Assembly: GCA_030324005.1 (NCBI GenBank)
Contig: JARDVH010000121.1
Location: forward strand, 6,187,715-6,251,714
Reading direction: 5' to 3'
Length of the DNA stretch: 64,000 nucleotides
Source of the DNA: Negaprion brevirostris
Taxonomy: Eukaryota
The position numbers and the translations under genes were made by a program. The notes beneath the pieces are model-generated. The model was not told where the DNA came from. It searched no databases and worked only from the letters and a program-made list of their open reading frames with translations. Shown here piece by piece: positions 40,491 through 63,876 of the stretch; the stretch's first letter is position 1, and each line of letters begins with the position of its first letter.

Positions 40491-41005
40491 CTAAACTAGG
40501 GTTAAGGTGCCATCAGGGCTCGTGGTGACCCAGAGTTTGAAGACAGGGTAAACTTTGCCTGTGAGTTTGGCATTGAAGGTATACACATGGGCTCCGTTCT
40601 CCGGGTTGTAGAAGGACACCCGTCCTTCCTTGTTGTCCACGTAGACCCCCAGTTTGCTCAGATGGGCCATTAAGACTGAAGTGCCCAGCGATCTTACATT
40701 TTCCTTGTTGCCTTCGATGTTCCACATCATCAGGGCCCAGTAACTGTCCTTGGAAAACGGCCTGCTCCATCTGTTCATAGGTCGGACATTCTGGGAGACT
40801 CCTACGCTCCAGACTGTCCCTGGGCTGGCTGACACCTCCCAGTATTGCTTGCCAAGAGGAACACCGTCGCTTGCCCAGATTGTCCAACTGTCCGCAAATT
40901 GTAGCTCCTTGCTTGCTGCTACTGTGTCATTCCAGCCGACGCTTTTGTTGTCTTTGCCAAAGGCGAACCGTGGATCAGCATTTTCATTATCGAATACAAT
41001 CGGAA
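40491..41005 (-). CDS. terminal exon encoding a B30.2 (PRY-SPRY) domain
   Basis: Acceptor TTCTCTCTTTGTTTACCAG|; VPIVFDNENADPRFAFGKDNKSV...GKQYWEV...WSVGVS...YWAL...KLGVYVDNKEGRVSFYN...HVYTFN...VYPVF; intact to TAG. Confidence 0.92.
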
Positions 41006-41895
41006 CTGGTAAACAAAGAGAGAAGAAAAGTAAGCATTGTATTCATGCAATTGTGCACAGTTCACAAATTAAATAATCAGCCCCTTTAAAGCAGCAGCAA
41101 CAATGTGCAAAATTTCTGAAGTACTTTGACCTGTCGCCTTTTGTTCTTTCCCCTGAATCATTGCTAAATTACAACGCATATACTTTATCCATAAAATATC
41201 CAGTATAACTTTGCAAAATATTTCCAAATGTTCATCAAAGGAAGTGCAAGGAGATACAAATATCTCCATTATTGTTGTTTTAGGAGCTCCAAATTGATAA
41301 AATTAACATTGCAAATATTTTCAAATATATTCGCTGTATTAAATACAACGATGTTTACATTAGCTGCATGGCCCTTTTTCCAATATAAGGAACTTCCAAT
41401 CATTAATAGTAACATCACATGCACATTTAAATGTTAATTGGAAAAATTATGCCCCACCCCCCACCCACCCCAGACAGTACACAGCTCCACATTCTCCAGT
41501 CTGAGGCTCAAGCGGCTGGTGCTGCACCATATTTATGACAAAAAGTTGTTTCCGCCTCTGGAGCTTCACCCAGCTGGCTACTTTGTCTGATTGACTCGTT
41601 CAAAGAATCTTCCCATCTCTACTAGTGCCTCTCGGAGACCATCAAAAAACCCCAGGAGGTTAAAAAAACTACANNNNNNNNNNNNNNNNNNNNNNNNNNN
41701 NNNNNNNNNNNNNNNNNNNNNNNNNNNNNNNNNNNNNNNNNNNNNNNNNNNNNNNNNNNNNNNNNNNNNAGACATTTAGAAGGAGATGTGGCTCTCCTAA
41801 GGAAAGTAAAAGGGCGGGGGTGGGGTGGGGGGGTGGGGGGGTTGGTGGGGAGGGGGCGGGCTGCGGACTGTGAAGCAGAATTCATGATGGCTTAC

Positions 41896-41922
41896 CTTTA
41901 TGCTTCGTTAGAACTTTCCATT
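41896..41922 (-). CDS. 27-nt microexon of the B30.2 gene (EWKVLTKHK)
   Basis: TTACTAG|AATGG...AAAG|GTAAGC, phase 1-1; similar to the 27-nt W-containing exon preceding B30.2 in butyrophilins. Confidence 0.75.
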
Positions 41923-42084
41923 CTAGTAATAGTCATGTGGATAGCAGAGAAGAGAGGACAGTGAAACATCCCCAAAATCCATACTTACGACATCAGAGCT
42001 CTATTGCATTAATACTCTGCCGGTAAGTGGAAATCACTCTGCCATCTTTAGGACTTAAGATCCTGAGCTTAATGGAGTTCAAAC

Positions 42085-42352
42085 GATCATAGAATCCCTA
42101 CAGTGTAGATAGATGTCATTCGGCCCATCGAACCGCACTGTTCACAATCCCACCCAGGCCCTATTTCTATAACGCCCCACATTTATCCTGCTAATTTCCC
42201 TGATACTAAGGGTTAATTTATCGTGGCCAATCAACCTAACCCGCATACATTTAGACTGTGGGAGGAAACCGGAGCACGCAGACACGGGGAAAACGTGCAA
42301 ACTCTTCACAGAAGTTACCCGAGGTAATAGTGCAAAACACTGTGCCACCTTT
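42085..42352 (-). mobile_element. HE1-like V-SINE (internally deleted)
   Basis: CATAGAATCCCTACAGTG tail; GGCCAATCAACCTAACC; GACTGTGGGAGGAAACCGGAGCAC. Confidence 0.85.
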
Positions 42353-43149
42353 CTGGGCATTCGATTGAAAGGATACAAACTTTGACCAACCCCATAAAGT
42401 GGAAACACTGAGGGAACGCTGTCTTTTAGTAAAATATTAAACCGAGGACCTTTTCAACCTGTCCTCGCGGATCTGCTAAGCGAGAGTGTAGAACATCCCT
42501 CAGAATATCACTGCCCAAAAAAAATCTATAGGAGTTTTGATTAAAACCAACCGTCATCAAACAATATCCTACCAAATAAACACAGCGGGACACAAATTGT
42601 CGGGGCAGAGAAAAATTAAGTGCACCACTGATTGACCCATTATCAACTAAGCACAGTCCACTTGGAGTAATGATCTGGGTCAGGTTTTTGACTGTTTTTA
42701 TCCAAAAACCTGATGCAGTCTTGGCTTTTCCAGTATTGATCTCCACCTCCCATTTCCAAAATCAATGCTAATTGAACACCACTAGTTGGGGGGGTGGGGG
42801 GGGGGGGGCGGAGGTGGGTACTTGCTACTGATGGTATCATGACTAATTCCACCGCTGCACTAGAACAAAACGGANNNNNNNNNNAAAGGTGGTGTCACTC
42901 ATATAACTAATGAAACTGAGTTTTTTGTTAATTTTGTTGTGCTGATTAATCATGAATTTATATTGAGGGTACAGTTTCACCGGCCTTATATTCCAGGAAC
43001 GGTGAATGAAGAAAAATACCCCTTTGCATTTTATGTGACCATCCTTCATGTATTTACATGACTAACCAGCACACATTTTTGTTAGTTTACAGATTGATGA
43101 ATATGTTGTGTATTTTCAAAATTATTGACAGGGGAGATTTAAAAAAAAA

Positions 43150-44760
43150 ATTCAGATATGGAAGTTGCTTTCATATTCATGTATATGTGAGATGTGACTA
43201 TATAAATAGATCTGTGGAGGCTTTTTTAACCCACAGTGATTAGTGGTCGATTTTCATATTTATGTCCATTGGAGATTTCACACTAGTTGCTTGCTCTTGT
43301 TACATATTATGGTTCATGTAGATTGATTGAGAGATGTTGGAATGGATGCAGAAGATATTTCCTGTGCTGACAAATAGGGGAAATGATTTCTTAATTTATG
43401 ACAACGGAAATCTTTCCATGCTCATGCATATCTACACCATATTCATACTGATGGAGATGAGAGGGGTTTTTGGATGTGACAGGTATTTTCTGCACTGATA
43501 GATGGGGAAGATATTTCTCAGACTGATGGTTACGTGAGCTATTTCACACCAATGGATGCAAGATCATTTTTCAAACTATTGAGTATTTCCCACGTTTTCA
43601 TTATCATGCAATTTTCATCATGAAATATATGGGAAAAAATCATTCTAAAGGATATGGGAGATGTTGTTTCACGAATGGGAATGGATGATAACTTTGTGTC
43701 AAAGGGTCGGGCTGACATTTTATAATGATATATATTGGTGGCATTTGAGTGTTGATCGTAGTATGGAATGGCTTCATACTCCTGGATATGGGCGATTCTT
43801 TCATAATGATGGAGCTGGGCGATGCCTTCAATACTGTTGCATATGGGCAAAATTTTCACACTGGTGGATATGGTACACATTTTCACTCAGGTGGATGGAT
43901 TGCTAGTTAAGCGAAGTGTTTTCATGATGTTGGTCATGACGATGGAAATCCACAATTCTTTGCATTGATGGGCACTTGAGATGCTTTCATTCTCACATGG
44001 GCCAGATTTTCAAGCTGATATATATGGCTAATTATTACATATTCATTGACAAAGACAATATTTCCATGCTGATGGATATGGGCGATGTTTTTTCTCTGAT
44101 AGATGTGGACGTTTTTATGTGATGATCTATATGAGCATGTGCTCATACTGATTGGTATGTAGGAGATTCATTAGCACTAATGCACCTGGGTTATACTAAT
44201 GCACATGCAGAATTTCGTCACAATGATGGTCAAGGTATATATTTATTCCTGATGTTTATGACCATGTTTTCATACTGGTGGATGTGGCTGATGTTTTCAC
44301 ACATCAATATGGGCGAAGTTCCCATGCTGACGGATATCAACATTGCTTTCATATCAATGAATGTACAACATTTTTCAACCTAATGGATATAGGCGACGGT
44401 TTCATATTCATTGATAGGGGCAATGCTTCCATGCAAATGTAAATGGCTGAATTGTTAAATCTCATATATAAGGAATATGATTCGATTTCCATAGATCTGG
44501 GCTGTATTGTCGTAAAGACTAAATGGATGAGGCTTTCATGATATTGGATATGGGTGGTGACTTCATTCGTAGAGAATGGGAAGAGGTTTTCATCCAAATT
44601 AACATGGTTAATATAATTCTACTGACATTTATGGGCCACATCTTTGTATTGATGCATGTGGTCAAAGTTTGATGGACATGGGCAATCTTACAACTGATAG
44701 ATTGAGAAGAGTTTTCAGACTGATGGGTGTGGAGATATTTTAAGCAGGTCAATAAGCACA
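43150..44760 (+). repeat. degenerate minisatellite, unit about 27-28 bp
   Basis: Recurrent TGATGGATATGGGCGATGTTTTCATAC-like unit over about 1.6 kb. Confidence 0.75.
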
Positions 44761-45474
44761 TTTTTCGAGCGAGCCATAATGACTACACATCGAAANNNNN
44801 NNNNNNNNNNNNNNNNNNNNNNNNNNNNNNNNNNNNNNNNNNNNNNNNNNNNNNNNNNNNNNNNNNNNNNNNNNNNNNNNNNNNNNNNNNNNNNNCACAT
44901 CGAAAACCCCATCATTTTTTGTCCTACTTCAGGAGACTTACTAGGCTTCATGAACCACATTTTAGAACTCCACACTCTTCGTCATTCAGCTTGTAGTAGC
45001 TGAACACATCAGAACAGGACAATCCAGATCACAGTTATCAAATTGTGTTGTTCCCAGATTGCGACTGAATTAGATATAATTCAGATGTTTGACTGAAGTC
45101 GAGAATACTCATAATTTGGCGTTTGGTTTTGAAATTCAAGAGTGGACCTTCTGACGATTATTAGATATAAATGTAATGTTGGAGGGCCTGTTGCATGAGG
45201 AATGCTGCGTTGAACAATGACACAAAGCGAGGAAACATCTTAAAATGGCAAATTAATGATATCCCTGCCTGAACAATATCCTCCACATAACCAAATATTA
45301 TAAGGTTTGAAGCAGTCTATCTCCATGACTAAAAGGCAGTGGCACCTTATACCTGTAACCAAACGGAAAATTGTCGCACCTTTGGCGGGATCCACGCAAC
45401 CTGTGTGGGAGTTAAGAAGGGAGTTATTGTTGTGATTGTGATTATAGTCGTCGGGCCAAATGTTAAGACCATAA

Positions 45475-46400
45475 TACCTCGGAGCAAAAGTAGGTAATTC
45501 GGCCATTCATATCTGCTACAACATTCAATGATATCTTGGGAGAATTTGAAATGAAATTTCCTAGTCCACTTTCCGACTTCGATTCAAGGGAGAAATCCCT
45601 TGATTCCTTTACTGATAAAAATGCATTTGCCTCAGCCCTTAGCAGGCTTACTAGCCCAGACACCACAGCCATCTGTGGTAAATAATTCAACAGATTCAAT
45701 ATTCCTGCCATAGTAACATTCTCATTGTTTCTCTCAACGTAGGCGACAATTGACTGAGAATATGTCCTTGGAACATTGACAATACCGCAGTGGGAACCAA
45801 TCTTCCCACATCTAAACTTCCAAGCATCCATGGATATGCGATACATCTCAGACAAGTCATCTCCCAATCTTCTGTACTCGAGTGAATGGAGAACAAACCT
45901 ACTCAACGCCTTGAAAATCTATCTGCACCCAAGTTCACCTTGTGAACTTTGTCGAAACTGCCTTGAATATCAATATATATTTTGTTAGAAAACGGAAGCA
46001 CAGCTATTTGCAATATTTCAAGCGTGGCATAACAGGAGCTTTGTGTAGAAATGTGAGTCTTCTTGGAATGCGGACCTCATTCCCTTTGACATAACGGCAA
46101 ACATGCTATTTACTTTCATTTAGACTTTTTAAGACTGCCGGCTACGTTTTTGTTTTGCGTTTAATGCACAAAGATCCCCAAAAATATTTGTGTTGCATCT
46201 TTTTGCAGCTTTTTAATCAATTTCGATTATATTTACCTTCTTTGTTCTTCCTGCCACATTTCAAAATTGCACATTTGATACGTCATGTAGTTTCTGCCTA
46301 CTTTTTGGTGACTCACGTAATCTGTCTACAAACAGTTTTAAATCCAACTATCAACGTTAGCACTTGTCATCCCAATTGTTTAGAGACCAGAATCTTGGCA
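45475..46400 (-). mobile_element. old CR1 3' half
   Basis: Minus ORF LHSLEYRRLGDDLSEMYRI matches the CR1 ORF2 C-terminus (SLExRRLRGDLIEVYKI); tail near 45480. Confidence 0.7.
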
Positions 46401-47659
46401 ATATATATACAAATCTTTTCCCGCATCAGACCGGAGTAACCGTGTTTAGAATTCAGCATGATGACCCCAAAAAGCATATTTTTATTTTCCTTTGACACTT
46501 AGTAGATGGGTCAATCTTGTTCTTGAAAGCGATTATTGTTCTACCTCAAACAGTCGAATCCAAGATCAAGCACCGGTTTTATTTTATAAATTATTAATTA
46601 TTACAAGCTTTTTGTTTTGCTAAAGCTTCAAGATTAGTGCTTGGTGTTGGGACATTTTCGATTTTATAGCGCCCTCTAATTAATAAGGATTCTAGAAAAG
46701 ATGTTTGAGAAAAACTTGTTTTGCTTATGAAAGATAAATAACTGGGGGTGTCGTTAATCAATTCCAAATGATTGTTAAAACAAAACATTGACATAAATAA
46801 TGAACGCGGATGGTTTTGTGGCCTCTGATTTCCATTTGGAATATATATTGATTAGCGGATGATGGAAGTCACATGGAATGTTACTTTTTGTATAATTGAC
46901 CCAATTCACAGAGTTACCTAGTAACAAACGGGTATTGGAGAATGGATGTATTGGTCCTGCAGAGAGCCAGAGAGAACCTGAGGTGCTGAAAGACCTCTTC
47001 TGCGAAGAGAGGAGTAACTTTATTCCATGTATTGGCCTGGAGATCAGGTAATAACATATTCCTCTGTATTGGGGCAAAGCTTCCCAACATTAAACGCCCA
47101 GAGGAGATTGTAGATGCTCATTTGTGTCTTGCAGCATCTTATGTTGTCTGAACAATGTAATAGTTAATTTATGGACGAACAGTTGACATATAAAAAATAA
47201 ACAATAAAAGAAGAATAAAAAGAAAAAAAATGATGATATAAAAATATTAATTAATTATCGGTGGTAACATTTTAACATTCACTTTCCCGATGTTTGACCA
47301 GGGAGTTAGATTTTTTTTTCTTATGACTGAACAGATTTGCTATAATACTTTTAGAATGGGTCGATGACAGTGGGGTACAATGGCACCAACCATAAATTAA
47401 TTATGCTTTGCGGCCTAGTACTATTCTGTACGCATGTTCGTAATTCTGTATAATAAAATCTTCAAACTCGAAAGTGATAGCTCTTTTATTAGACAACATT
47501 AAATAGGATGTGCTTCCATCTGAGACACAGATAGGGTTCAGGTGGGAATTCTTGAATTTCAGTGCTGGAGTAGACTTGAGAAGTTAAAAGACGGTATCTT
47601 CCCTTCCTATAACATAAACAGTGGGTTTTGAGTGAAAGTTGAAAGCAGATCAGTCTTAC

Positions 47660-47695
47660 CTTCATCACTTGCATCTTGAAGCTTACTCTCGAGTT
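47660..47695 (-). CDS. 36-nt microexon of the B30.2 gene (ELESKLQDASDE)
   Basis: GTCCCTTCCAG|AACTC...GAAG|GTAAGA, phase 1-1. Confidence 0.7.
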
Positions 47696-49043
47696 CTGGA
47701 AGGGACAGGCGTTAATGCTTGTGTTGCGTATTAACTGCAAGGCTTCCCCCTATTCGTACCCAAAGTTTCATGTTCATGAACTTCCAAACTTTATTCCCAC
47801 TATGTCTATTTTCAGAAACAATGTGCAGCAGAACTGTGCAGGTCGTACAGCCATCACAAATTTGGTGCTTAGTGAATCAAGATAATAGAAAGATAAAGTG
47901 ATGGAAATACTCAATGATCATGCAAGCTTTTCCTCATATATGGACATTGGTTATTTTCCCGCAGATGCTGCCAGATCTGCTAACCATTTCTGGGTGAATT
48001 GTTGATATTTACAATTTGAACTATACACCATCTCTATGTCCTATATTCATGTCTGATATCTAACCCATTGTCATCAGTGCAACAAAACAATCAGCGATAA
48101 GAATGTGTAAAATAAAGCTCAACTGCTCGGTTCTTGTTGATCATTTTGAATTTGGAATGGATGGGATGAAGGCTGATCTTTGTGTCTCCACGTGCCATTG
48201 GGAGTTGTATGTTTACTTCCCCGTCTATTCTATGAGGGCTTTATCAGTTTCAGATTCAGAAAACTGTGCATTCCTGTACGATTACATAGCTTAAGTACTA
48301 AACCCTTTGACTGTCTCTGCTGCTCAATGATTATTGAATTTTCGGATATGAAATCATTCATTGCTTTTTTTTTAATCCATGCCCCCACTGCAGGAAATAC
48401 CTATTATTCCTGAATATGTCGGGGTGGTGGTGGTAGTGGGGGGGGAGGGGGGGGGAATCTAAGCTCGTTAATAATGCATATTTTTACCTCAACAAAAATC
48501 GTTAAGTGGAATTAAATCAAAATACATTGAAATATTCATCCACATGGTAGAGAGCAATTTGGACAGGATATGCCAAAAGATTGTCACGCCGTCCACTAAG
48601 ATTTGCCTGAAGCAAAGGGAGCTGGTGACCCCCAGGTAGTGGAAAAGAGCCAAGCAACCAATGCATCCTGTGACCATTTCCCTGCCAAAAAAAAAATCAT
48701 CGCTTAGGATATTGTTGAAAGGAATGATCTCGCAGTGGATAAAGGTTGCAGACAAATCTGAAGGACCACGGCTGTTTCTCCTGCAGAGCAGAGGATAAAA
48801 ACGTACCAACATGAAATAGTATAGGGAATTCAATTATAATGAGAATAGACGGGCGTTTCTGTGGCCACAAAGGAGACTCCAGTTTGGTGTGTTGCCCCCT
48901 TTCTCCACGGAACCCACCTCATCACCAGTTCCAACCCCCCCCCCCCAATCNNNNNNNNNNNNNNNNNNNNNNNNNNNNNNNNNNNNNNNNNNNNNNNNNN
49001 NNNNNNNNNNNNNNNNNNNNNNNNNNNNNNNNNNNNNNNNNNN

Positions 49044-51720
49044 ACAAATTAAAAATAGAACAAGTGATCTTAAAAACCCAGTTGGGAAGAAAGTTGAGAG
49101 GTCAGAACTCAATGATAGAGATCGCAGGATTACGGCCAGGGTCACGTAATAATTAAATTAGAAATTGTAGGACATGTCGGATGAAGAGATGGTGTGAAGT
49201 GGAGGAGACCCAATTTCTGTGACTTTGGCACTGGTTCTGGTGGACTTGGGAATGCTGCAAACTGGACAGATTACACGTGGTCAGGACGAGGTCTGAGGTC
49301 CTCAGGGTTATATTTCAAAGTATGATTGAGAACGAGTTAACTTAAAATGGCAACATAGTGGGAACCTGTGCCAGGAATAAATCGAGGGAGAATCAAGGAC
49401 AAACATCAAAGCCAGAAAGGGAAAGAAAAACAGTAAAAGCAGAGAAACTAAGGGCCAAATCAAACGGGACCTCAGTGAAAATAATGGGAACAGGACCAAT
49501 AATTTAAATAACTTTCTCCCTGAAGGCTTTGTGCGTTAATGCACATTATTTTTATAATACAATGGGTGGATGAACCGATATGATGTAGTCGGGATTTTGG
49601 GCATGTGGCTATAGGGTGACCAAAGCTGGAAACTGATCATGCAGGTATATTTAGAAATTAAAAACAAAAAAAGGCCTGGTTGCACTGATGCTTGAGGATG
49701 AATTTAATACCATGCTAAGGAAGAGTATTACGTCCAAAAAATGTGGAACTTATATGGTAGTGCTATGAAGCACCAAAGATCAAAAGTGTGAGTGAGTATT
49801 GTACACCAACTCCCAAGCTGCCGTTGTGAAGCTGGTGATGACATTTAACCGGAAATTAGAGATGCATGCGCAGAAACAGTATCTGAAGTTATGAGTTCTT
49901 TTAATCTGTATATACATTGTGTAAAAGAAAATAATAACACTACTATAGGCGAGGAATTCCTGCAGTGTATACATGATAGTTTTCTGGACCAATAAGTTGT
50001 GGAACCTATTGGAGAACATGCAATACAAGGCTTGGCATTATGTAATGAGAGATGAAAGTTTGGCAATCTACTTACGCAAGACCCTTTTAAGGATGGACAA
50101 TCATTACATGATGGATTTTTGTAATGAATATGGATTGTGATTCTCAGACAACACTATAGAATGGTAATAAAAGAAATTATGATGATGTAAGGTGCGAGTT
50201 GGCTATAATGGTTTTGGAAACGTTACGTAAAACTACCGCGATGGATACACAATGGCAAACATTCAAATAGCTTGTGGGTGAACTAAAACAATTCTTTATT
50301 CCTGCCTGTCACAAAAGTCAAAGTGGAAAAGTAGCCAAAACATCGTTATAGTTTGCATTGTATCTGAGGAAGAGGTATTATAGTTGGTGAAGAAAGAGCG
50401 ACAGACCTGAGCATTGGGAGCAGTTTGGAATTCAGCAAAGGAAGACAAAAGGAGTGATTACAAATGAGAAAAGAAAGTACAGAGCAAGCTTGCAGGAAAG
50501 GTTAAAAAAAAGACCATGGAATTTCCTATAGGTATTTGAAGAAAATAGCAAGATTGTTCAAGATTGATGAAGTCATACAATGAGAAATACGAAATTTTGC
50601 ATGGCAAAATATTAATGGATGGCCATCTGAATGCATACTTTGGTTATGTTTTCACAATGGAGGTCACAAAAAAGATACCAGAAATGTTAGGAACCATGGG
50701 GCTTCACTGAACGGGAGAAACTGTAGGAGATTAATATTCGTCAAGAAATGGTGAAGAATAAACTGATGGGGCTGAAGCCCGGTACACTGCTAAGGCCTGC
50801 TAACCTACGGCTGAGAGTAAGTAACGAAGTAGCCCCAAAAATCTCTAGATGCATTTGTGGTCATTTTTATGTTTCTTATATACTGTGGAACAGATCCTAA
50901 AGATTACAAGTTAGCCAATGTAACCTCACTATTTTAGAAGCTGGATAAGACAAAAAATAAGGAATTATAAACCAGTAAGACTGACGAGGTAATCGAAAAA
51001 TAACTAGAATCGACTATCAAAGATTTCTTTTCAAAGTACATGAAAGACAATGGTAGAATTGGACAGAGTCGGCATGGATGCGTGGCAAAGGAAGCAATAT
51101 TTGACACATTTGCGAGAGTTCTTCGAGGATTTAACTAGCAGAGATGATGAGGGGAACCAGTGTTTGTGATTGATTTAGACTTGCAGAAGCTTTTCAACAT
51201 GTCACACATCAGAGATTAGTAGGCAAGTCTAAAGCACATGTGATTGGGTGCACTTTTTTTTTAGATGAACAGAAAACTGTTCGGCAGACAGGGAACAAAG
51301 AGTCGGAACAAATGGATATTTTTCAAAATGGCAGGCAGTGGCTCCTGGATTAATGCAGGATTTAATGCCGGAAGCCTAGCTATTCGCTATATGCATTCAT
51401 GATTAGATATGGGACGTAAATGTAATATTTCCACGTTTTCAGATTGAGTTGGGTGTTGGATGGTAAGGTGAGCTTTGAGAAGGATACAGAGAAACCTCAA
51501 GTGAAATTTGTTCTTTGACTGAACAAATTGAATGCAGTTGTACTACAATTTGAATAAATGTAAGGTCACTCTCCTCGTTAGCTAAAACTATTTGAACAAC
51601 TACTGTCCAAATGCCCAAAATTGGGAGAGCAGAAATTGAATGAAGCATGCTTTCGTGCATTAGTCACTGAAGATAAGAATGCATGTGCAGCAGGCCATGA
51701 AATAAAATGCAAATTCTATG
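49044..51720 (+). mobile_element. long decayed CR1 LINE (ORF1 esterase end, APE, RT)
   Basis: ORF1-like W-C..F..HWF segment near 49190; YDVVGI..WL*GDQSW at 49580; NYKPVRLT, QSRHG, DLQKLF RT motifs at 50960-51200. Confidence 0.8.
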
Positions 51721-51994
51721 CGAGTCTACACAGGATTAAGACAGGAGTTAAAATATCAGAAATGTTTGAAATAATTCAAAAACCTATGGAACTTCATATC
51801 ATCATGACAAATTTTGAAATTTAACAAACATTATATTGATTTGTCAGGGCCTACGGGATTGTTAAACAATAATTATGTATTTTGCATACTGCTGGATTCC
51901 AGTTACACCTTATTCACGAAAGCATCATCTTTTCAAGGGTTTTTGTTACAGTGAAATTCATAGATGTGAAAGTTTACAACAAATCAAGGGACAG

Positions 51995-52288: not shown

Positions 52289-52372
52289 TGTGGTGTCAAG
52301 TGCTAGTTAACAGAGTGAAGCAATATTCTTACTTGTGAATAATAGCATGCATTCGACTTGGACCAGACTTAC

Positions 52373-52399
52373 CCAGGAGTCTGGAACGGGCATTAACTG
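52373..52399 (-). CDS. 27-nt microexon of the B30.2 gene (AVNARSRLL)
   Basis: poly-T...CCATCTCAG|CAG...CTGG|GTAAGT, phase 1-1; tandem CAGCAG acceptor. Confidence 0.65.
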
Positions 52400-54369
52400 C
52401 TGAGATGGACATCAATAGAAAAAAAAAAGTAATCTGTCAGTAACGAAATTGATGCAATTCAAACAAACAACATCTCAATTTATTCTCCTGTTCTCCTCGC
52501 TAATGTAGGACTTTCCGAGGGGCGTTCAGCAAATTAGATGAACCATACAGATTTCCATTTCCTTGAGCCCACACTTCCAATCTTGGGCTTGTGCATCTGC
52601 AAACATGGATGTTTGGTTCAAATAAAGTGTTGGTGGCAGCTAATATATACCATTAGAGTTTCAGCTGCGTTTGATAGTGTAGATCTAATTGAACATAAGA
52701 GGTTCTTTGTTGCACTCCAATTTGTTGTTTTCCACTTGCTAAGTATTGTCCCAGAGCGAACGTTGAAGACTGGGATTTTGCAATGTCCTGGCCTATGGTT
52801 TGAGGACCATGGGGCAGTGGCTGCAGAGGTGAAGTGGTGGAAATGTCATTGTCTAAGGTTCTCCAAGCATAGAATATGGAGAAACGTCTCATTCTGCATA
52901 ACCCATTGCCACTGTCTGCCCGATATGAATTATATGTTGTAAATTGCCAGGAGTTTTACAATTGCAATGCAGGCAATCCAGCATGATATACTTTCCACAG
53001 CTGAATTTAATTACACTTTCTTTGATCTGCCATTTCCATTCCACTGCCGTCCAGCTGCGTTCCAGGCACACATTTTAAACTGCATATGCCAACGGTTTTA
53101 ATATTGGAAATGGGGTCTACTCCCGTATTGCAGTATATAATGTCCCAGCGTCTCAACACGAGGTTCCGGCTTTGGATTATTACAACGGGATGGGGATCAA
53201 GAAGGTGCCTTTGCAACGTTGGAGACACTCCTCGTCTAGAATTATTAGCTATGGTAACAGCCGAAACATTGTCATGGTGCTCGCTTAGTTATGTCAGAGA
53301 ATTGGGATCCAAGAGTCATTCTTGGAGACAAGCACGTTTTTGTAACCCACATGATGAGGGGAAATAAATGGAAAGACATAACGTCCAGTTGTTCAGGAGT
53401 CCAGGACGAACGCATTTGAACATGAGTTATATTGTATCAACACCAGCGGGAACTCAGAAGAAAGGATTTACAGAAGATGGCCAGAATGTGCAATGCGTTA
53501 CCCTATGAAGCATTGGGAGATTTTTTTCGCACGTTTGAGAGAAAAAAAATAACACGTTTAGAAACATACGGGGATTATGGTATGGTATTGAGATTGGTGA
53601 GATGCAAATGATTGTCTGGAAGTTCGTGTAGAGTATGTGACAGTGAGCAAGTTAATGTTTCCGTCAGGAGTGAAAACGGAATACATTGTCTCATGCAGTT
53701 TTGAGGATGCGATCCTCAAGGCAATTTAGGGCTGATTTGCAGCGAAGGCCAGTCATTGAAAACAAGCTGTGTCCACTCAGTTATCTGTGGTACTCCTTGC
53801 CCGTGTCTCTCTCCCATTTAAGTCAGTGCAACTTCATTTTGCCATTCGCTGAAGTGGGCGGCAAAAACACAATTAGTCCGTCTCTCACAGTTGTGACTCA
53901 GGACTCTTGAATCCGAAGTTCATCGACGATGCATTTTGTTGAATGTCAGTAATTTCTGCGTCATATGATTGGCATGCAGGTGTCTTCTCACTGTTCCTCC
54001 ATTAGCACACCATTACTCACGCAGTGACTCAGTCACTCACTAACACATTCTGACAATTCAGTTGGTTCCTTTAATAAGATTTATTGGACAAGGCTCCGAT
54101 TGAGTGTTATAAGACATACCAGAACCTATCCTCAATCCAACTATATTCTGGTTCCCTGACTGGGGTTTACATCTTCAGGGACTATTACAGCAATTTTACA
54201 GGAGCAACCCACTAGTATCGTTTAACATCACTGCGTTTTTGTTGGGGGAATCTCAAATTTTGGAAGATAAAGGGAAGAAAACCTCCACAAAACATATCCT
54301 TCTTAATTGCCATAGATTCCGATTAATTAAACTATGATTATAGATCATAGAGTCATCAGATATCTTATT

Positions 54370-54627
54370 GCTATTGGCGTCACATGTCGGCTTACATTAG
54401 CACTGCAATTAAGTTACTGTGAAACTCCCCTATGCGCCCAACCCTGGCGCCTGTCTGGGTGCAGAAAGAGAAATTTGGCATGGACAATGCACCTAACCAG
54501 CACGTCTTTAGGATTGTGAGACGAAACTGGAACACCTGGATGGAAAGCACAGAGACACGTATTGAACATGCTGACTTCACATAGACAGTAACCCAAGCCG
54601 ATTATCCAACCTGGTCCGTGGACTGTG
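54370..54627 (-). mobile_element. V-SINE split by the Penelope insertion (5' head resumes at 56273-56310)
   Basis: Same body as 20440-20710; continues as CTACTGTATCGCCATGCCGCC after the Penelope. Confidence 0.7.
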
Positions 54628-56272
54628 ATGATGTAGAGATGCCGGCGTTGGACTGGGATAAACACAGTAAGAAGCCTCATAACGCCAGGTTAAAGTTCAA
54701 CAAGTTTATTTGGCAGCAAATACCAGTCGCTTTCGGAGTGCTGCTCCTTCGTCAGGTGAGTGGGGAGTTCTGATCACAAAAAGGGCATAAGTACGCACAC
54801 ACTCAGTTTACAGAATACGGATAAGTGTATCTTCAAGCATAGGCTCGAACAAGATTTCTTCACTGCACAGGACCGTCAACCGATGCTTTACACTAGATAT
54901 ATCGATGATATTTTCTTCCTTTGGACTCATGGTGAACAATCACTTAAAAAACTGTATGACGACATCAACAAGTTCCATCCCACCATCAGACTCACCATGG
55001 ACTACTCTCTGGAATCCGTTGCATTCTTGGACACACGCATCTCCATTAAGGACGGTAACTTCAGCATCTCACTGTACCACCAGTCCACGGATAACCTCAC
55101 GATGCTCCACTTCTCCAGCTTCCACCCTAAACACATTAAAGAAACTATCCCCTATGGACAAGCCCTCCATATACACAGGATCTGCTCAGATGAGGAGGAT
55201 TACAATAGACATCTCCAGAAGATGAAAGATGCTATCATAAGAGCAAGGTATGGCATTCCACTAATCAATCGACAGTTCCGACGTGTCACATCGAAAAACC
55301 GCACTGATCTCCTCAGAAGACAAACATGGGACACAGTGGACAGAGTACCCTTCGTCACCCAGTACTTCCCCGTAACTGAGAAGCCACGACATCTTCTCTG
55401 GAGTCTTCAAAATGTCATTGATGAAGACGAACATCTCGTCAAGACCATCCTGACACCCCACTTTTTGCCTTCGAACAACCACACAACCTCAAACAGAACA
55501 CCGTCCACAGCAAACCACCCAGCCTTCAGGCGAACACCACGACACCACACAACTGTGTCACAGCAACCTCTGCAAGACATGCCAGATCATCGACACGGAT
55601 GCCATCATCTCATATGAGAATACCATCCATGAGCTACACGGCACATAGTCTTGCAACTCGGCCAACGTTGTCCACCTGATACGCTGCAGGAAAGGATGTC
55701 CCAAGGCATGTTAAACTGGGGAGACCATGCAGACGCTACGACACGGATGAATGAACACTGATCGACAATCACCTGGCAAGATTATTCTCTTCCTGTTGGC
55801 GAACACTTCAGCAGTCACGGGCCTTCGGCCTCTGATCTTCGGGTAAACGTTCTCTAAGGCGGCCTTCACAACACACGATAACGCAGAGTTGCTGAGCAGA
55901 AACTGATAGCCAAGCTCCACACATGAGGACGGCCTTAAGCGGGATCTTGGGTTCATGTCACATTATTTGTAACACCCATAACTTGCCTGGGCTTGAACAT
56001 CTCACTTCCTGTCCTGCCTGGAGACAATACACAACACTTTAACCTAAGCTTAATGCTATCTCCACTCACATTGTCTGCACCTTAAGACTTGACGAGCTAT
56101 AAGGACTCACATTCTAATCAGTATTTTGTAAACTGAGTGTGTGCCTTTATATGTCCTCTTTGTGACCAGAACTCCCCACTCACCTGACGAAGGAGCAGCG
56201 CTCTGAAAGCTAGTGGCGTTTGCTTTCAAATAAACCTGATAAACTTTAACCTGGTGTTGTGAGTATTCTTAT
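54628..56272 (+). mobile_element. Penelope-like retroelement (5'-truncated RT and GIY-YIG endonuclease) with inverted pseudo-LTRs
   Basis: YTRYIDDIFFLW, VAFLDT, FHPKHIKETIPYGQALHIHRICS; downstream CNSANVVHLIRC...GETMQTLRHG GIY-YIG remnant; 54665-54790 is an inverted copy of 56150-56272; 11-bp flanking repeat CG(T/C)GGACTGTG. Confidence 0.93.
56181..56215 (+). ncRNA. minimal hammerhead ribozyme motif in the Penelope pLTR (inverted copy near 54725-54760)
   Basis: CAC-CTGACGA-A-GGAGC AGC GCTCT-GAAA-GC-TA-GTG: conserved core, stem II, palindromic stem III, CAC/GTG stem I. Confidence 0.7.
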
Positions 56273-57382
56273 CGCGGACTGTGCCAACTACTGTATCGCC
56301 ATGCCGCCTGGTTATATGAGCATCAATTAGGAGTGAGAACATTGAATCAAAGGATAAAGAACATTAATGTGTCGACGACTGAAAATAATTGTGAAAAGCA
56401 GCCATCACTCAAGTCAGATAGATCGTGTCCATTTTAGGAAACTCAAAATCAGTTCTGCTCAGTTGTGAACTCCTTACCGAGCAATGGTTAACCCAAGAGC
56501 GGCTTTTCTCATGTTGTTGGACGCTTCAAGTCCCACTGGATATCTGGACGTGAAACTGGGAAATTTCCCGTGCGCACTCTTCCACTGTGTCTCTGTGGGC
56601 AATAAGTCAATAAAGGTCCCAAGTACCCATTCTCATATTGCCGCTGTTTCAAAATTCACTCTGATAATACATCATTGAATGTACTTGCGTAATAGACGTT
56701 GTTCCAAGATGCTATTGCATCAGCAAGCTCGTATTAGCACCCGACCCTCACACAACTCTGTGCGACTTCCAGGGTTTTTATCCAGCAGCATTAATTGGAC
56801 GGCGATCTTATGCCAATCTTTGAATGGCTTGGCGGGCAACTTGGAGATGATTTTTTTCCCCCCTAGGTACCTGGTGCTTTTGCCCTCCTAGATACGAGTG
56901 CCCTGGATTTGGACGGCATTGTCTAATACTGCCTGATGTCTTATTACCGTGCATCGTGCAGGTATGCACAATTCTGTCATTATGCACTGGTGGTGACGGC
57001 AGTGAATATTTATGGATAGGTTTCGAATCAAACGGCTATCTTTCTCCTGGACTGTTTCGAGCTTATGGGTATCCTTGGAGTTGCAGTCATCCATCCAATA
57101 ACAGAGAATTCCAGAAAACGCTTTGCACATTGTGGACGGGCGTTTGGGTGTCAAAACGTAAGTTATTTGCAACAGTACTCAGCTTTGCTCTGGCATTGAC
57201 AACAGATAAGTGGTTTGTATAGTTAAGTTTCTTATTAATTGAAAGGGCCAGGATTTTGAAACGATTCTAATGTATGATGATCAGTACTTTGCTTGTTTAA
57301 TGATGGGGCATGCTCGAGAAGCTGACTTGTTTGATCCTCTTCTTCACTTAACTCTGTGTTTTACTGATCATCTTAAACTAAC

Positions 57383-57418
57383 CTTTATTTTTGCCCGCGT
57401 ACTTCAGCTTCTGGAGTT
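57383..57418 (-). CDS. 36-nt microexon of the B30.2 gene (QLQKLKYAGKNK)
   Basis: TTTCTCCACTAG|AACTC...AAAG|GTTAGT, phase 1-1. Confidence 0.65.
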
Positions 57419-58149
57419 CTAGTGGAGAAACCACAGACAAATTACTAGGTGCCGGTGTACAGCAGATTAGATTAACTATTCTGTCCTATACTTCATATAA
57501 AATTAAAGTTTAGTCTTTGAAAAAGAAATGCATCAGCCGTTTTTTGTTTAATTACCCAAGATTGTTTCTTCCAAATCTTTTTCTAAAGGAGGAAGAACAA
57601 AATTTCATTCGACCTGCACTGTAAGTATTAATTATTTGCTCGTCGTGCCTGACAGCTAATCAAAAAATAAACAAACAGAACTTGTAACCTGATGCAGGAC
57701 CAAATTTGCACAAAATATGAATTAGGTGTAACTTAAAGCTTTTTGAGCGTTTTTTTGGTTATCTGAATGTCTTGGATAGATAGCCAGAGACAAAATATAC
57801 AGATCTTGAAACCAAATGTCTTGATGAAAAACGTTTCGAACGCTCTGTAGTAGTCAGGGTGATACACATGAGACAAAATTAGGGAACTACGTACATCTTT
57901 CTGATTTTCATGCAGATTGGGTAAAACATATTAAACACAGAAGCACATTCTCCTCTCAATATTAGAGTCATAGATTTCGATACCTCCACGTAGAGTGTTC
58001 TGGTGAATTAGCTAACATTTAGTGCACTGTACCCAGGTTTGTCCTCCATTTTACCCTGACAAATCAATCCCTGGAATTTTAGAATACCTCACAACGTTCG
58101 CCATTTATATTATGTACAAATTGTGTCACCCAGACACGTAAGCTAAACT

Positions 58150-58340
58150 GGAGTCAGGTCATTGAATGTCTTTAAGACAGAGATAGCTAGGTTCTTGATC
58201 AATAAGGGGATCAGGGATTATGGTGATAAGACAGGAGAATGAGGATGAGAAAAAAAGAAACAGTCATGATTGAATGGCAGAGCAGACTCGATGGGCCGAG
58301 TGGTCTAATTCTGCTCCTATGTATTATTGTTTTATAGCCT
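58150..58340 (+). mobile_element. CR1 3' end
   Basis: TTTAAGACAGAGATAG.TAGGTTCTTGAT...GAATGGCAGAGCAGACTCGATGGGCCGA. Confidence 0.85.
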
Positions 58341-58966
58341 TACGGAAAAGCTGCACACAATTCTTCTCTGGGCACAACTGGCTTAATTCTGCTCTCATTA
58401 CCATGGACAATGTTGATGCCTGCATGTATTGCTGAAAGGGCATGTGGATGTGTGCAAACAGATATGGGCTGAAACTCACAATTTGTGACTCGAGGCGTCA
58501 ATGAGTGCGCCAAATCAGTTTAAAATAACAATATCTAAATGAAGCGAGTGGCAGCACTAACGTGCAAGAGGCTGTTCGCCATGGAAAACTGATTGAAACA
58601 TGTTGCTTCTTCGCATTAAATGTTGTTTTGCGCTGTCAGTTCCAAAGGATTATGATTATCTATAGAACAATATACTCAGAGCAGATGTCTTCCCGCGGTG
58701 TAACAATAAAACTATGTTCACCCAAATGATGTAACAAGCTAGGTAAAGCGGCAGATACCCGCCCCGCTACCCACTGCCCCCCCCAAAAAAACAGTGAAAC
58801 AGGTCGGCTTGATCAATGATAAACACTGGTTCCATGCTCACTATCAGTGTGGCAGATTTCACCTTCAAAACGTAACAATTTACTTGAAATCGCTGGACGT
58901 CTGGAATCCTCGTCCAGTGATAATATCAAGTCCACCCCTCCCGCTATTCCGACACGCGTTACTTAC

Positions 58967-58993
58967 GGCACTTTGCATTGATGTTTTCAAGTT
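58967..58993 (-). CDS. 27-nt microexon of the B30.2 gene (ELENINAKC)
   Basis: TTCTACATGTAG|AACTT...TGCC|GTAAGT, phase 1-1. Confidence 0.65.
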
Positions 58994-59529
58994 CTACATG
59001 TAGAATGCAAATTTGAAATTACGGTCAAATTGTACTGGCTGCTAATGCGATTATAGCACATACTGTTGATATGCGGACCCTCACAGCTTAATTAAGTGAA
59101 GGTGCAACACGTCAGTGGCATTTATAACTTAAGACTCCCCAGGTAACATCTGGATGCCTTTCTCTAAAGTTGTGCTGTTATAACTGCACGTCATGCTACA
59201 ATAGTGGTATCAAATGATCGATTGACACAACTTTTCTAATTGTGTTCCAGCCTCCCTTATTTGTACGACATCTGCAGCTCTGACAGGTCGCAGTTCCCGT
59301 CCGAACTTTTCACTCATTGTTCGCTTGTACTCAATGCTCCACACTGCCATCTTAATGACATTCAAAATGTCATTGCCTCCCTACTTTCCATGTTGTTACG
59401 TGGCTCCAGCATTGATACCTTCGACTTTACTCTGAAATCTGCGGTGACTTCAAGATCTGACATCCAGTGCATGTTAACTTTCTTTCATACTACATTCCGA
59501 GGTGCATTATTTCCAAACTGGACATGTGT

Positions 59530-59840
59530 CATGGCACAGTGACACAGTGGTTAGCACTTTTACCTCACAGCTCCAGGGATTTGGGTTTGATTCCTGGCTT
59601 GGATCACTGTCTGTGTGGAGTTTGCACGTTCTCCCCCTGTCTAAATGGGTATCTGTCGGTTTCCTCTCACAGTCCAAAGATATGCGGGCTAGGTGCATTG
59701 GCCATGATCCTGGGATGCATAGGTTAGAGGGATAACTATGTGGGGTTACAGGGATACGGCCTAAGTGGGATTGTTGTCGGTGGAGGCCCTGACGGCTGAA
59801 TTACCTCCTCCTGCACTGTAGGGATTCGATATCTATATCC
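59530..59840 (+). mobile_element. HE1-like V-SINE
   Basis: GGCACAGTGACACAGTGGTTAGCAC...GGTTTGATTCC...GGAGTTTGCACGTTCTCCCC. Confidence 0.85.
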
Positions 59841-61134
59841 ATGTTTAAAGGGACCATAACACTCTATGTGGATTCCTTTCAAAAATTTGCCAGAGTGCGT
59901 TCACAAAGAAGGCTTCTAATATTTATTGCTATTTTTCTAAAATGCGTACCAATCTCAATGCAATGCAAGGCTGAAACCTTGGGCTGGTTATTTCTCTTTA
60001 CCTGACAATGGGAAATCTCAAGATTGGGGAAATACGTGTTTGTGAGACAGAGACACATCAGATTTATCCAGAAGAAAATTGTGAAAAAAATTCCCGTTGG
60101 AAACTGGCCACTCACGGGGGATATTTGCAGGAAAATGAATTATTTGCAGCATTCTAAGATTATCAGAAGTAATAATTACTGGCACTGTTTGAATCCAGAT
60201 ATAAGTAAGCATTTTTAAAACTCCACAAGCCAAATAATGTAAACATACAAATAGACTTGTCTTAGGACAATTTGGGATTGCTGATCACAATCTTGGAGCA
60301 CTGCAGACAAATGCATAGCATGCACTACAAAAATGTTTTTTTTCCAAGGTGTTGCTTAATGTGTGCATTTTAAATACAACAAATTATCACCACTTAAGAA
60401 GCAATGCAAAGAATGTTGGCTTATCTTTGATGAATGAGGCATACTTCTTGCTCTGGAACCTGCCTTGTGCGGCTGTCCTCTGCTCTGGCCTTAGGATTCA
60501 TTTTACAATCTTCATAAAAATGCAGACAGTGTGATTAAAGGGGTGTCTCAAGGAACTATTAAGACTCCTTAATATATTTCATACTTGGGCAGTCTGAATG
60601 TGATGCCTAATGAACAATTCTCCACACCACAAAATTGCCCTTGAATCCACTTCAATTAATACTCGTTCTGCAATCTCCCTCAGAGACCTCAGTGATGGAC
60701 AACACTGGAAACTAATCGGTCACATTGGTGCAACTGGAGGTTGCGGTTGAAATACACTGATAGGAAAATGGAAAGAGTCCTTTATTTTGCTGACACTATG
60801 CTTCACCTGAAAGTACCTCATGTTCTGCTTCCTGAAGAGTAATCCATTATCCCAAGGATCAGAAAAAGGTCATCCTTTTCTCAAACTACGGTCTCTCGTG
60901 TAGAAGATTCTATCTCTACAGACCGTGAAAGTTTAAGTGTTTTGCATTCAACGAAAGAAAAATATCTTTAAAAGGAATTCTTTGTCGGGTCATTTCTCCA
61001 TGAAAGAGCATTCTACATGATTTCACGTGAATTTTCACACTAGAGAACTTATAGAGATAGAAACAGCGTGAATTTTATTTCACATTGTGAACACTTAATC
61101 TGCAGAATTGTCTCTTACTTTTTTCTACTTCATT

Positions 61135-61378
61135 GACATTATCCCTGTAAACCTAGTTATTTATCCTTATATTCCCCCTAATCTACACATCTAGGGGCAC
61201 AGAGGGGCAATTTAGCATGGCCAATTCACCTAACTTGCACATCTTTGGACTGTAGGGGGAAACTGGAACATGCAGACATAGGTAGGATGTGCAAACTCCA
61301 CACAGGCAGTTACCCAGAATTGAACTTGATCCCTAGTGCTGTGAGGGAGCAGTGCTAAGTACTGTGCCACCCTTGCCA
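61135..61378 (-). mobile_element. V-SINE
   Basis: GGGGCAATTTAGCATGGCCAATTCACCTAAC...TGCAAACTCCACAC...ACTGTGCCACC. Confidence 0.85.
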
Positions 61379-62497
61379 CTCTAATTCTTAGGAGACATGG
61401 GTTCAAAACCCAAGTACATCAGTATCAATTGAATTCAATTAATAAATCTGGAATATAAAATCAGTCTCAGTAATTCACAGTGCAGAAAGAGGCCATTTAG
61501 CCCGTTGAATCTGCACTGACTCTCTGAAAAAGTACCTTACCCAGGTCCACCCCATGCCCTATCCCCTTAACCACACGCATTTACACTATGGATACTAATT
61601 TGAAAGAGGGGTTTAAGTCTATAAGAGAAATGTTGCTTGATTGGAATGTATAGTGACAGATTAGCAGTTGAGAAGTGCATCTTGCCATGTTCAAGTATTG
61701 TTCAATTGTTAAAAGTTAAGCTAATTCATTTGTTACAGTTAAACTGTATTGTTAAATAAAGTTTGTTTTGATANNNNNNNNNNNNNNNNNNNNNNNNNNN
61801 NNNNNNNNNNNNNNNNNNNNNNNNNNNNNNNNNNNNNNNNNNNNNNNNNNNNNNNNNNNNNNNNNNNNNNNNNCAAACGTATGGATCAATAAGAATTAGC
61901 ATGATGGATAATTGTGTCGTCTGGAGGAGACGAATTTGCGAATAAATAATGCTCGATAGACTCAAGTAGGTGATTCCATTCACAGTGTATGATGGGCCAA
62001 CGAAGCAAGCTGTGGATTGAATTTGATCGCTGGAGTCGTCTCAAGCCAGAGGTATTGTTAGGTGTGTTTTTTTTTGTGTGTGTGTTTCTGGAGTACCAAG
62101 TTTTGTGTAACGCATTTCAAGTGATGCTAGAGCATTTTACTCTTCAGGGAAATTGTCTGTACCTATATACTTCACTGTGATATTTCCCGCAATTTCTGTC
62201 CACAAATGAATGTTGCTTGTGTCTTTTTTTCTACTCAAATCAAAAGCGGTCAAAGTCTAACTCTGAGATTTGTAATAACGGATGAAGTGATAAATATGAT
62301 TTTGGAAAACTGTATTACATGCCGTGTAGAGTTTGGTGTTCTGAACTCTATAAATCTTTCAGTTCCTTTAAGCTGCTTGTACGTTTACACAAAATCCAGT
62401 ATCATTCAAGCTTTCAGGTAATTAAACAAATCATTTTGCGTCAACGCATTCAATAGAAAATAAGAGGAAATGATAAATATACTTTGTGGAATCTTAC

Positions 62498-62524
62498 CAA
62501 TCGTTTTTTGTCGTAACTGTTCCT
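62498..62524 (-). CDS. 27-nt microexon of the B30.2 gene (EEQLRQKTI)
   Basis: CTTCCTACTCTTATAG|AGG...ATTG|GTAAGA, phase 1-1. Confidence 0.7.
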
Positions 62525-62824
62525 CTATAAGAGTAGGAAGACTTTTCATTGTTTGTTGGAAACGAATCAGAGAGATTCAACGTCCAAATCCAAATTTACT
62601 GTGACAGTGCATGACCCTGCATGCTGTTACTTTATAATTCTGAAGTATACTACTTCTATGCTTTCAGGCAATTCAAGGTCAATAGATATCCCACCTGAAA
62701 TGAGGATAAAATTTCATGATTTTCCCAATTGCATCAATAGAAAAATGACATTTTATAGGCTAAGAAGACATAATTTTGAGTCACAGGACGATCCCATACT
62801 TAAAAGGAATAAAATCGGATAGAT

Positions 62825-62968
62825 TTGGGACCTTGTCAAACGCCTTCTGAAAATCAAGAAAGACCACATCCACCGGCTGTCCTCTATCCATCGCCCGAGA
62901 CACATCCTCATAGAACTCCAATAAATTTGTCAGACACGACTTCCCCTTAACGAAACCGTGCTGCGTCT
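62825..62968 (-). mobile_element. young CR1 RT fragment
   Basis: TQHGFVKGKSCLTNLLEFYEDVSRAMDRGQPVDVVFLDFQKAFDKVP, intact with CpGs retained. Confidence 0.92.
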
Positions 62969-63068
62969 NNNNNNNNNNNNNNNNNNNNNNNNNNNNNNNN
63001 NNNNNNNNNNNNNNNNNNNNNNNNNNNNNNNNNNNNNNNNNNNNNNNNNNNNNNNNNNNNNNNNNNNN

Positions 63069-63145
63069 TCTTATTGAATAGCGGGGCAGGCTCGAAGGGC
63101 TGGATGGCCTACTCCTGCTCCTATTTCTTATGTTCTTATGTTCTT
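63069..63145 (+). mobile_element. young CR1 3' end
   Basis: Nearly identical to 1-75. Confidence 0.85.
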
Positions 63146-63852
63146 GTGATTGATACAACTTTAAAAAACATTGGGTATGGACTCGAATTGATTTATGGTA
63201 CGTCCGCAATGGATTGAATCATGCGGCTCTGAGAATGGAATATAATTGTTCTAAACGGCCGTCATTTAGCAGTGAGTTTTCTGACGAAACCTCGACAAAA
63301 CCATTCTTAGACGTCAAGTTTTACATTGGAATGTACCTGCAATTGCCTTTGAAAACACATATCGTCAGGCTCGGACTACTTTACCATTCCGTGGTGTTTT
63401 CAGCATTGCTCAGCTACGTTCCAAGTGCTCGAATTGATTACTTAACAGCCAACTCAAATTACAAACCAAACCTGTCAATCCATGCGCAATTAATCGATCA
63501 ACTTTTTGGTTAGCTGAAAAATTTAGGAACCATTTTTGTGAAGTATGCTTCCTGACATCATCCTTGAGCAAACTTATTGAATTCTTAACTTCCCAAATTC
63601 GCGTTTTGACTCCACATGTAACAATATTTCTTCAACTGCTGGAGAAAATATTTTATCAAATGCACGCTTATATTCAGCATTCAAAGCAACACAATAGAGC
63701 CATATTCAGTCGCTGCTGCTCATTTCAACCTTCATTTGGATGATTCCCAATTGCACTTAAGGGAAGCCTCCTGGATTTGTGTTGTCTAGAAATACATTAG
63801 AAATGTTCAAAACGTACTTAGCGACAGTATGCTAGACATTCGGTTTACATAC

Positions 63853-63876
63853 CTGTTTTACTATTTGAGCTTTCGC
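63853..63876 (-). CDS. 24-nt microexon of the B30.2 gene (xESSNSKT)
   Basis: CTTTTGCCACTTTCAG|GCG...ACAG|GTATGT, phase 1-1. Confidence 0.6.

Follow-up and report, generated by a model that had tools for sequence, protein, structure and literature searches.

The window analysed here is a stretch of 64,000 nucleotides of the Negaprion brevirostris genome (contig JARDVH010000121.1; G000:C121:6,187,715-6,251,714), within which exon positions are numbered from 1. Its minus strand carries a complete exon for a B30.2 (PRY-SPRY) domain preceded by a chain of microexons, and together these likely form the 3' end of one gene of ~830 kb. An original prediction, made from the sequence alone, had placed seven microexons of 24, 27, 27, 36, 27, 36 and 27 nt before the B30.2 exon. 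All seven are present with the coordinates, lengths, AG/GT boundaries and stop-free phase-1 peptides it described; its count was too low, as an additional 27-nt microexon (57582-57556, minus strand) brings the window total to at least eight. With this exon and ~164 more predicted upstream, the expectation that further microexons were hidden in the gaps was borne out.

Terminal exons in the window

The features of the gene found in the window are, in the direction of transcription:

63877..64000, minus strand: intron extending past the window edge; the array continues upstream with ~164 further predicted exons
63853..63876, minus strand: 24-nt phase-1 microexon, the weakest of the set (score 12.7, model trained outside the window)
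62498..62524, minus strand: 27-nt phase-1 microexon (score 21.4), with a counterpart in the corresponding position of the paralog L003 series
58967..58993, minus strand: 27-nt phase-1 microexon (score 15.2; best match at paralog L002 33 vs a null maximum of 16)
57556..57582, minus strand: 27-nt phase-1 microexon (score 22.2); its L003 counterpart is followed by an intron of the same length, 137 nt
57383..57418, minus strand: 36-nt phase-1 microexon (score 20.8), with 36-nt counterparts in L003 and L007
52373..52399, minus strand: 27-nt phase-1 microexon (score 14.4), whose tandem acceptor (NAGNAG) allows an alternative form of 24 nt
47660..47695, minus strand: 36-nt phase-1 microexon (score 27.3; best L002 match 26 vs a null maximum of 14)
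41896..41922, minus strand: last 27-nt microexon (score 13.6), with Trp at position 2, directly before the B30.2 exon
40491..41005, minus strand: terminal exon encoding an intact B30.2 (PRY-SPRY) domain in full, together with the stop codon (Pfam, structure model)
40068..40073, minus strand: candidate poly(A) signal, the first AATAAA after the stop (motif)

The scores come from a model that was retrained with 129 exons lying outside the window and then applied to 246 candidates inside it. The nine best candidates are the seven predicted exons, 57582-57556 and a shorter-donor variant of the exon starting at 47695. A score of at least 15 was reached by 6 of the 246 window candidates and none of 1,120 controls, a score of at least 12 by 10 and 3, respectively. 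The three weakest exons (52399, 41922 and 63876, with 14.4, 13.6 and 12.7) overlap the best controls (13.8, 12.7 and 12.3), and no more than 3 of the 7 predicted exons were detected with a generic splice scorer, so that individually the sites are not convincing. The B30.2 exon is preceded by a pyrimidine tract and AG before its start at 41005 and ends with the stop codon TAG at 40493-40491. Its product gives a SPRY match in Pfam (E 4e-12), and the predicted structure (pLDDT 80.2) is similar to the PRY-SPRY domains of TRIM7, TRIM58 and BTN3A1 (Foldseek TM about 0.72-0.76). Paralog L003 repeats the terminal series of the window, including the counterpart of 57582-57556 and the 137-nt intron. A Trp-bearing last exon like 41922-41896 is also found in L003 and in skate and chimaera models.

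Extent of the array and design of the rod

A contiguous 1.06 Mb upstream of the window was scanned. The array continues on the same strand up to G000:C121:7,060,009 (window-extended position 872,295), which corresponds to ~830 kb or ~25 times the length visible in the window. The working list contains 172 phase-1 calls (95 of 27 nt, 66 of 36 nt, ten of 21 nt and one of 24 nt; two exons of the original prediction were entered by hand) with a median spacing of 2,779 nt and ~1,725 residues when joined. On the basis of their sequence, the exons are predicted to be spliced together into one transcript. In a strand control with free exon length (9 to 120 nt, score of at least 16, first 664 kb), using a model trained on 73 of the array's exons, 232 calls were obtained on the gene strand, among them 68 with a length of 27 nt and 58 with one of 36 nt, compared to 40 on the opposite strand, none of which had either length. 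In the stretch outside the training set the numbers were 26 vs 0 for 27-nt and 18 vs 0 for 36-nt exons. The 27/36-nt class ends at C121:6,933,554, and the remaining part of the array, 5' of it, is a block of 21-nt exons (ten vs one on the opposite strand at a score of at least 15).

The encoded residues are K to 16.9%, E to 15.3% and L to 13.7%, with 0.3% P. Hydrophobic residues peak at positions 2, 5 and 9 of the 36-nt exons and at position 4 of most 27-nt exons. In 50 adjacent 36+27 pairs, the hydrophobic fraction at positions 2, 5, 9, 12, 16 and 19 is 0.84, 0.84, 0.80, 0.36, 0.82 and 0.26. These peaks support the proposal that 27+36 nt constitute a module: the pair encodes three in-register heptads. 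The two lengths alternate more often than expected by chance, in 101 of 160 steps vs a mean of 77.9 in shuffles, none of which (10,000) was as high. A recent tandem exon duplication was rejected, since the mean pairwise exon identity is 0.38-0.42 and only 1 of 6,610 same-length pairs reaches at least 0.8; the array exons are old duplicates. Cysteine favours core positions (17% at position 5 of the 36-nt exons). Conserved cysteine pairs and recurring Cys-bearing 27-nt exons were also observed in the rod, for the P0153 and P0165 stalks and the G000:C84 arrays; they might serve in disulfide formation or metal binding.

As 149 of the 172 calls end in G, only 60 of the 14,706 ordered exon pairs would generate a stop codon. 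The assumption that any exon can be skipped in frame therefore holds for the reading frame, and isoforms of relatives indeed differ by 9-residue units (see below), but it does not hold for the coiled coil. Loss of one 27- or 36-nt exon breaks the heptad register, which is preserved only if a 21-nt exon or a 27+36 pair is lost. Dropping a 9- or 12-residue exon is a register shift equal to a 5- or 2-residue insertion. In coiled coils, 5-residue insertions need delocalisation, while nine-residue nonads are a local helix break (PMC4786415); single-exon skips might produce hinges in the rod.

A mirror-image array on the plus strand stands head to head with the gene; it begins near 7.11 Mb, and the samples taken along it reach a paralog B30.2 exon at 8.31 Mb (G000:C121). 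Two features of this array suggest two genes in tandem, namely a Trp-type exon of 27 nt at 7,191,941 and a second block of 21-nt exons, which starts at 7,269,122. A B30.2 exon was not found between 7.19 and 7.31 Mb, a region that contains gaps. On the other side, an intronless open reading frame (ORF) of 308 codons (window 17251-18177, plus strand) points towards the B30.2 gene from 22 kb downstream; it encodes a rhodopsin-family G-protein-coupled receptor (Pfam 7tm_1, E 4e-13). A further, intronic ORF (window 54760-55617, plus strand) in a very-high-depth repeat region resembles a retroelement, with a reverse-transcriptase-like motif recognized by eye; no Pfam match was obtained for it at E 0.01.

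Sister loci, relatives and ancestry

Arrays were found at all eight family loci examined (this gene and seven others in the genome), with L005 as the weakest (6 calls vs 3). At L007, the paralog B30.2 exon (G000:C121:10,360,671-10,361,187) is split into two frames and two stalk exons (10,331,277-10,332,872) have a nearby inverted copy, pointing to either a broken gene or an assembly artefact. The nearest named relatives all stem from cartilaginous fishes, namely skate, catshark, electric ray, basking shark and chimaera. When catshark stalks were mapped with exon length and phase left free, XP_038671249 aligned collinearly with 43 exons at C84:91.21-91.39 Mb (chain score 1,142 vs 155 on the opposite strand). 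Of these, 42 are in phase 1, and 39 belong to three lengths (22 of 27 nt, 11 of 36 nt and 6 of 24 nt); the stalk has a coherent period of 3.51. A second catshark protein, XP_038672306, maps less well (12 exons, chain score 202 vs 68). In catshark, electric ray and chimaera, the RefSeq isoforms, all of them predicted models, are distinguished from one another by single internal units of 9 residues; the ray isoforms also differ by a 6-residue unit. The relatives are labelled 'TRIM39-like', 'TRIM69-like' or 'A33-like' in RefSeq. Atlas neighbours of the catshark protein, which offer a lead, are long SPRY proteins with coiled-coil families only; one of them is named isoform X51. A close orthologue model of the gene was not found by word-based searches (0 of 648 candidates; 10 and 2 matches in further searches), a weak negative result given the crowded candidates. 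Literature on this B30.2 microexon family was not found by a search that covered neither subscription journals nor supplements; the accessible text of PMC6795676 mentions B30.2 for teleost NLRs only.

For a tree, 71 B30.2 domains were selected from the matches, omitting L007 because its B30.2 exon is split. The 16 family rows make up one side of a branch with 100/99 support, and by their sequences the B30.2 domains of the family form one cartilaginous-fish group. Outside this group fall the B30.2 domains of three proteins from ray-finned fishes (bowfin P0065, gar P0106 and tarpon P0120), which combine a type II anchor or leader with a coiled coil and a C-terminal B30.2 domain, implying, as judged from these predicted features, an extracellular B30.2 on a stalk.

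The exon grammar of the stalk was compared with two control loci. A shark butyrophilin (G000:C84:98.87 Mb), for which immunoglobulin V-type (IgV) and C-type (IgC) exons and the transmembrane segment were located, has phase-1 exons of 21, 21, 27 and 27 nt between the transmembrane segment and B30.2, with scores of up to 25 under the array model. The TRIM control locus has long exons and gave no microexon calls in 20 kb, a third of which is N. Furthermore, the Trp before the skate B30.2 domain aligns with that before the B30.2 domain of BTN3A1, and the last microexon of the window has its Trp at the same place. The C84 cluster that contains butyrophilin IgV exons also includes two family loci. 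Taken together, the butyrophilin control, the Trp alignment and the position in this cluster favour a butyrophilin-type origin: the stalk is likely derived from a butyrophilin-type tail, which the B30.2 tree does not show. The cluster itself (G000:C84:85-101 Mb) comprises dozens of B30.2 exons, butyrophilin IgV exons and TRIM genes.

Neither a RING nor a B-box match was found in the locus, which contains gaps, and none of RING, B-box and TRIM_CC in the family models scanned. TRIM membership was rejected on the missing RING and B-box exons, the microexon stalk and the empty TRIM control, in agreement with the original prediction of a non-TRIM B30.2 gene with a coiled-coil stalk built from microexons. 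Its second label, butyrophilin-like, is appropriate for the exon grammar; with respect to the domain composition, no IgV, IgC or transmembrane exon was found in the sequenced part of the locus, in which gaps remain. The gene is a real, extreme variant of the heptad-exon design of butyrophilins and chicken BG genes and not a TRIM gene.

With butyrophilins (BTN3A1 and the shark butyrophilin) the gene shares short symmetric phase-1 exons of 21 and 27 nt leading to a single-exon B30.2 domain, and the Trp-bearing last segment in register. Skipping of heptad exons is described for macaque BTN3A (PMC6790196). Butyrophilins contain few heptads (PMC8813856, PMC12841164), whereas the gene has ~170 exons vs four, the 36-nt class and the 36+27 module, and lacks detectable IgV, IgC and transmembrane exons; its B30.2 domain belongs to a separate long-branch group and is about 25% identical to that of BTN3A1. 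Chicken BG tails are encoded by 13-36 exons of 21 (sometimes 24) nt (PMC4046983). The BG genes and the BG-derived zipper protein resemble the gene in having a long coiled-coil tail from many tiny exons, in forming a multigene family and, with respect to the 5' block only, in the many 21-nt heptad exons. In the accessible text of PMC8813856, binding of orphan B30.2 domains to BG tails is no more than a speculation. Unlike the gene, BG has IgV and transmembrane segments and no B30.2; the gene has a B30.2 domain, five times more exons, mainly of 27/36 nt, and a length of ~830 kb. Guinea pig enterophilins combine a long leucine-zipper heptad region with a C-terminal B30.2 domain and are not known to contain Ig or RING domains; they are mammalian and much shorter. 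Enterophilin-1 is reported to bind sorting nexin 1 (cited in PMC13749957). TRIM-B30.2 proteins (TRIM7, TRIM21, TRIM39, TRIM58) have a C-terminal PRY-SPRY of equal similarity, but no RING or B-box was found in the family models or the locus, and the exons of the TRIM control are long. The micro-exon genes (MEGs) of Schistosoma also contain runs of very short exons between long introns and generate diversity by alternative splicing (10.1101/2023.06.21.545858); they are unrelated, with 10-20 exons and secreted proteins of up to 189 residues, for which the available part of that source describes neither a heptad rod nor B30.2.

Nature of the gene product

The genomic sequence establishes the exon array with its strand bias, length classes and heptad register, shows that the B30.2 exon is intact and reveals seven sister loci that share the design. 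For the gene as a whole, we consider it moderately probable that ~830 kb and ~170 symmetric exons encode a coiled-coil rod with a B30.2 domain, derived from a butyrophilin-type tail, cytosolic and without an Ig ectodomain. The exons would be spliced into a rod of ~1,700 residues ending in B30.2. With the textbook helix rise the rod length would be ~250 nm. Chains would pair through the rod and hold their B30.2 heads next to one another, forming a module for ligand binding or scaffolding. Ancient tandem duplication of exons may have enlarged the array, starting from 21-nt heptad exons like those of the 5' block and leading to 36+27-nt three-heptad units. Skipping of 21-nt exons or 36+27 pairs would then yield isoforms of different length, while skipping of a single 27- or 36-nt exon would break the register and possibly create a hinge or a partner filter. 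By analogy with butyrophilins and chicken BG tails, an immune or a cytoskeleton-linked role is conceivable.

Several observations speak against this interpretation. The joined calls contain one stop, at a junction after a weak call, and their periodicity drifts between 3.0 and 3.9, indicating errors or omissions in the exon list. N makes up 14.6% of the span, and 46 gaps of at least 500 nt leave room for Ig, transmembrane or second B30.2 exons. No transcript of the gene was observed; four read runs over part of it covered introns like genomic DNA, gave no informative junctions and count neither for nor against splicing. In the tree, 15 butyrophilin and 28 TRIM rows are intermixed and the family is not tied to the butyrophilins. 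The C84 array extends at least 110 kb beyond the RefSeq start of the catshark protein, and RefSeq starts may therefore be truncated. The first coding exon was not found by scans for transmembrane segments and leaders, by short tblastn searches with the N-termini of relatives or by a comparison of the two head-to-head 5' regions, which revealed only repeats in the DNA and no same-strand protein match, and skate XP_055510696 and chimaera XP_042192744, the closest full-length models in the tree, start with a 13-residue hydrophobic stretch.

The latter models raise the alternative that the same gene structure encodes a secreted or N-terminally anchored protein, with rod and B30.2 head outside the cell as a long-stalked recognition molecule, which is possible though not probable. 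The two models belong to the subgroup of the gene (support 97/80) and their hydrophobic leaders are similar. However, hydrophobic starts of predicted models can result from read-through of a pyrimidine tract, as in the B30.2 ORF of the window itself. Among 17 family models, they occur in the skate model and in two versions of a single chimaera model; the other 14 lack a hydrophobic stretch upstream of B30.2, and some of these are multi-isoform models whose alternative starts are hydrophilic. A genome search with the skate N-terminus gave no match. In the 5' region, where the scans yielded only unconvincing candidates for transmembrane segments and leaders, a 120-nt candidate for a phase-1 exon (C121:7,081,664-7,081,545) lies 5' of the block of 21-nt exons. 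Its splice sites are strong, and it begins with hydrophobic residues before turning acidic, but its ATG, although in good context, comes after the hydrophobic part, and a genome search found only the exon itself. The preference of cysteine for core positions would fit an extracellular rod, in contrast to the N-glycosylation sequons, which are at chance level (4 vs 6.5 in position-aware shuffles). A sequon depletion in one chimaera model under a plain shuffle (2 vs 9.6) is given no weight here. The anchored coiled-coil B30.2 proteins of ray-finned fishes provide a precedent, albeit from another B30.2 group.

A true butyrophilin- or BG-type membrane receptor with IgV, with or without IgC, a transmembrane segment and an extreme cytoplasmic tail, its ectodomain exons hidden in assembly gaps, is quite unlikely. 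In its favour, the 5'-most exon calls are 21-nt heptad exons as in BG genes and butyrophilins (PMC4046983), the last exon resembles the pre-B30.2 segment of BTN3A1, two family loci lie within the C84 butyrophilin/TRIM cluster, and gaps of 0.8, 1.8 and 3.0 kb at C121:7.058-7.102 Mb could accommodate the exons. The opposite-strand array, however, begins no more than about 50 kb away from the last exon call. The original prediction had pointed to the sequence right of position 64000 for signal, IgV, IgC and transmembrane or RING and B-box exons; in the sequenced part of 1.12 Mb, tblastn with 173 proteins detected no Ig, RING, B-box or second B30.2 exon, although gaps remain. None of 23 matches to a butyrophilin IgV query lies on C121 between 6.2 and 11 Mb. 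The family models scanned are free of V-set, C2 and other Ig domains, and the nearest long Atlas clusters of V-set and C2.

It is very unlikely that the array is not one transcript, whether through several genes in tandem, promoters inside the array or partial decay of its exons, and that B30.2 is joined to the last few hundred residues only. For this reading, RefSeq models of relatives are mostly 200-950 residues long, the neighbouring plus-strand array has its second 21-nt block after a 27/36 block, and there are 46 large gaps. On the gene strand, in contrast, one 21-nt block is followed by one 27/36 block, a single call out of 172 ends in T, coiled-coil character is strong along the whole span, no second B30.2 was detected in the sequenced part, and chimaera models of 1,697-1,722 residues exist. 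The possibility that splice-like motifs arose by chance next to an orphan B30.2 exon or a TRIM gene of the conventional type was rejected and has a negligible probability: despite the weak individual sites under the generic scorer, the strand controls, the collinear mapping across species, the exon order and intron length conserved in paralogs and the absence of TRIM exons among the features found all argue against it.

Beyond the single gene, it may be speculated, although we regard it as doubtful, that cartilaginous fishes possess an undescribed family of megabase-scale genes whose hundreds of freely skippable 21-, 27- and 36-nt exons are a combinatorial kit for rods of tunable length and register displaying B30.2, possibly outside the cell, as an immune or adhesion system of their own diversified by splicing; such a family would have stayed hidden because annotation pipelines drop exons. 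An annotation blind spot is apparent from the relatives, whose entries describe short 'TRIM39-like' or 'A33-like' proteins and of which at least one is likely truncated. In vertebrate gene architecture, ~170 exons below 40 nt in one gene would mark an extreme, and the gene would be a natural test of microexon-chain splicing across introns of about 3 kb. The heptad-exon tail of butyrophilins would have undergone independent expansions, one that kept B30.2 in cartilaginous fishes and one without it, as BG, in chickens, and these would bear on the origins of butyrophilin-like genes and on the roles of long heptad tails.

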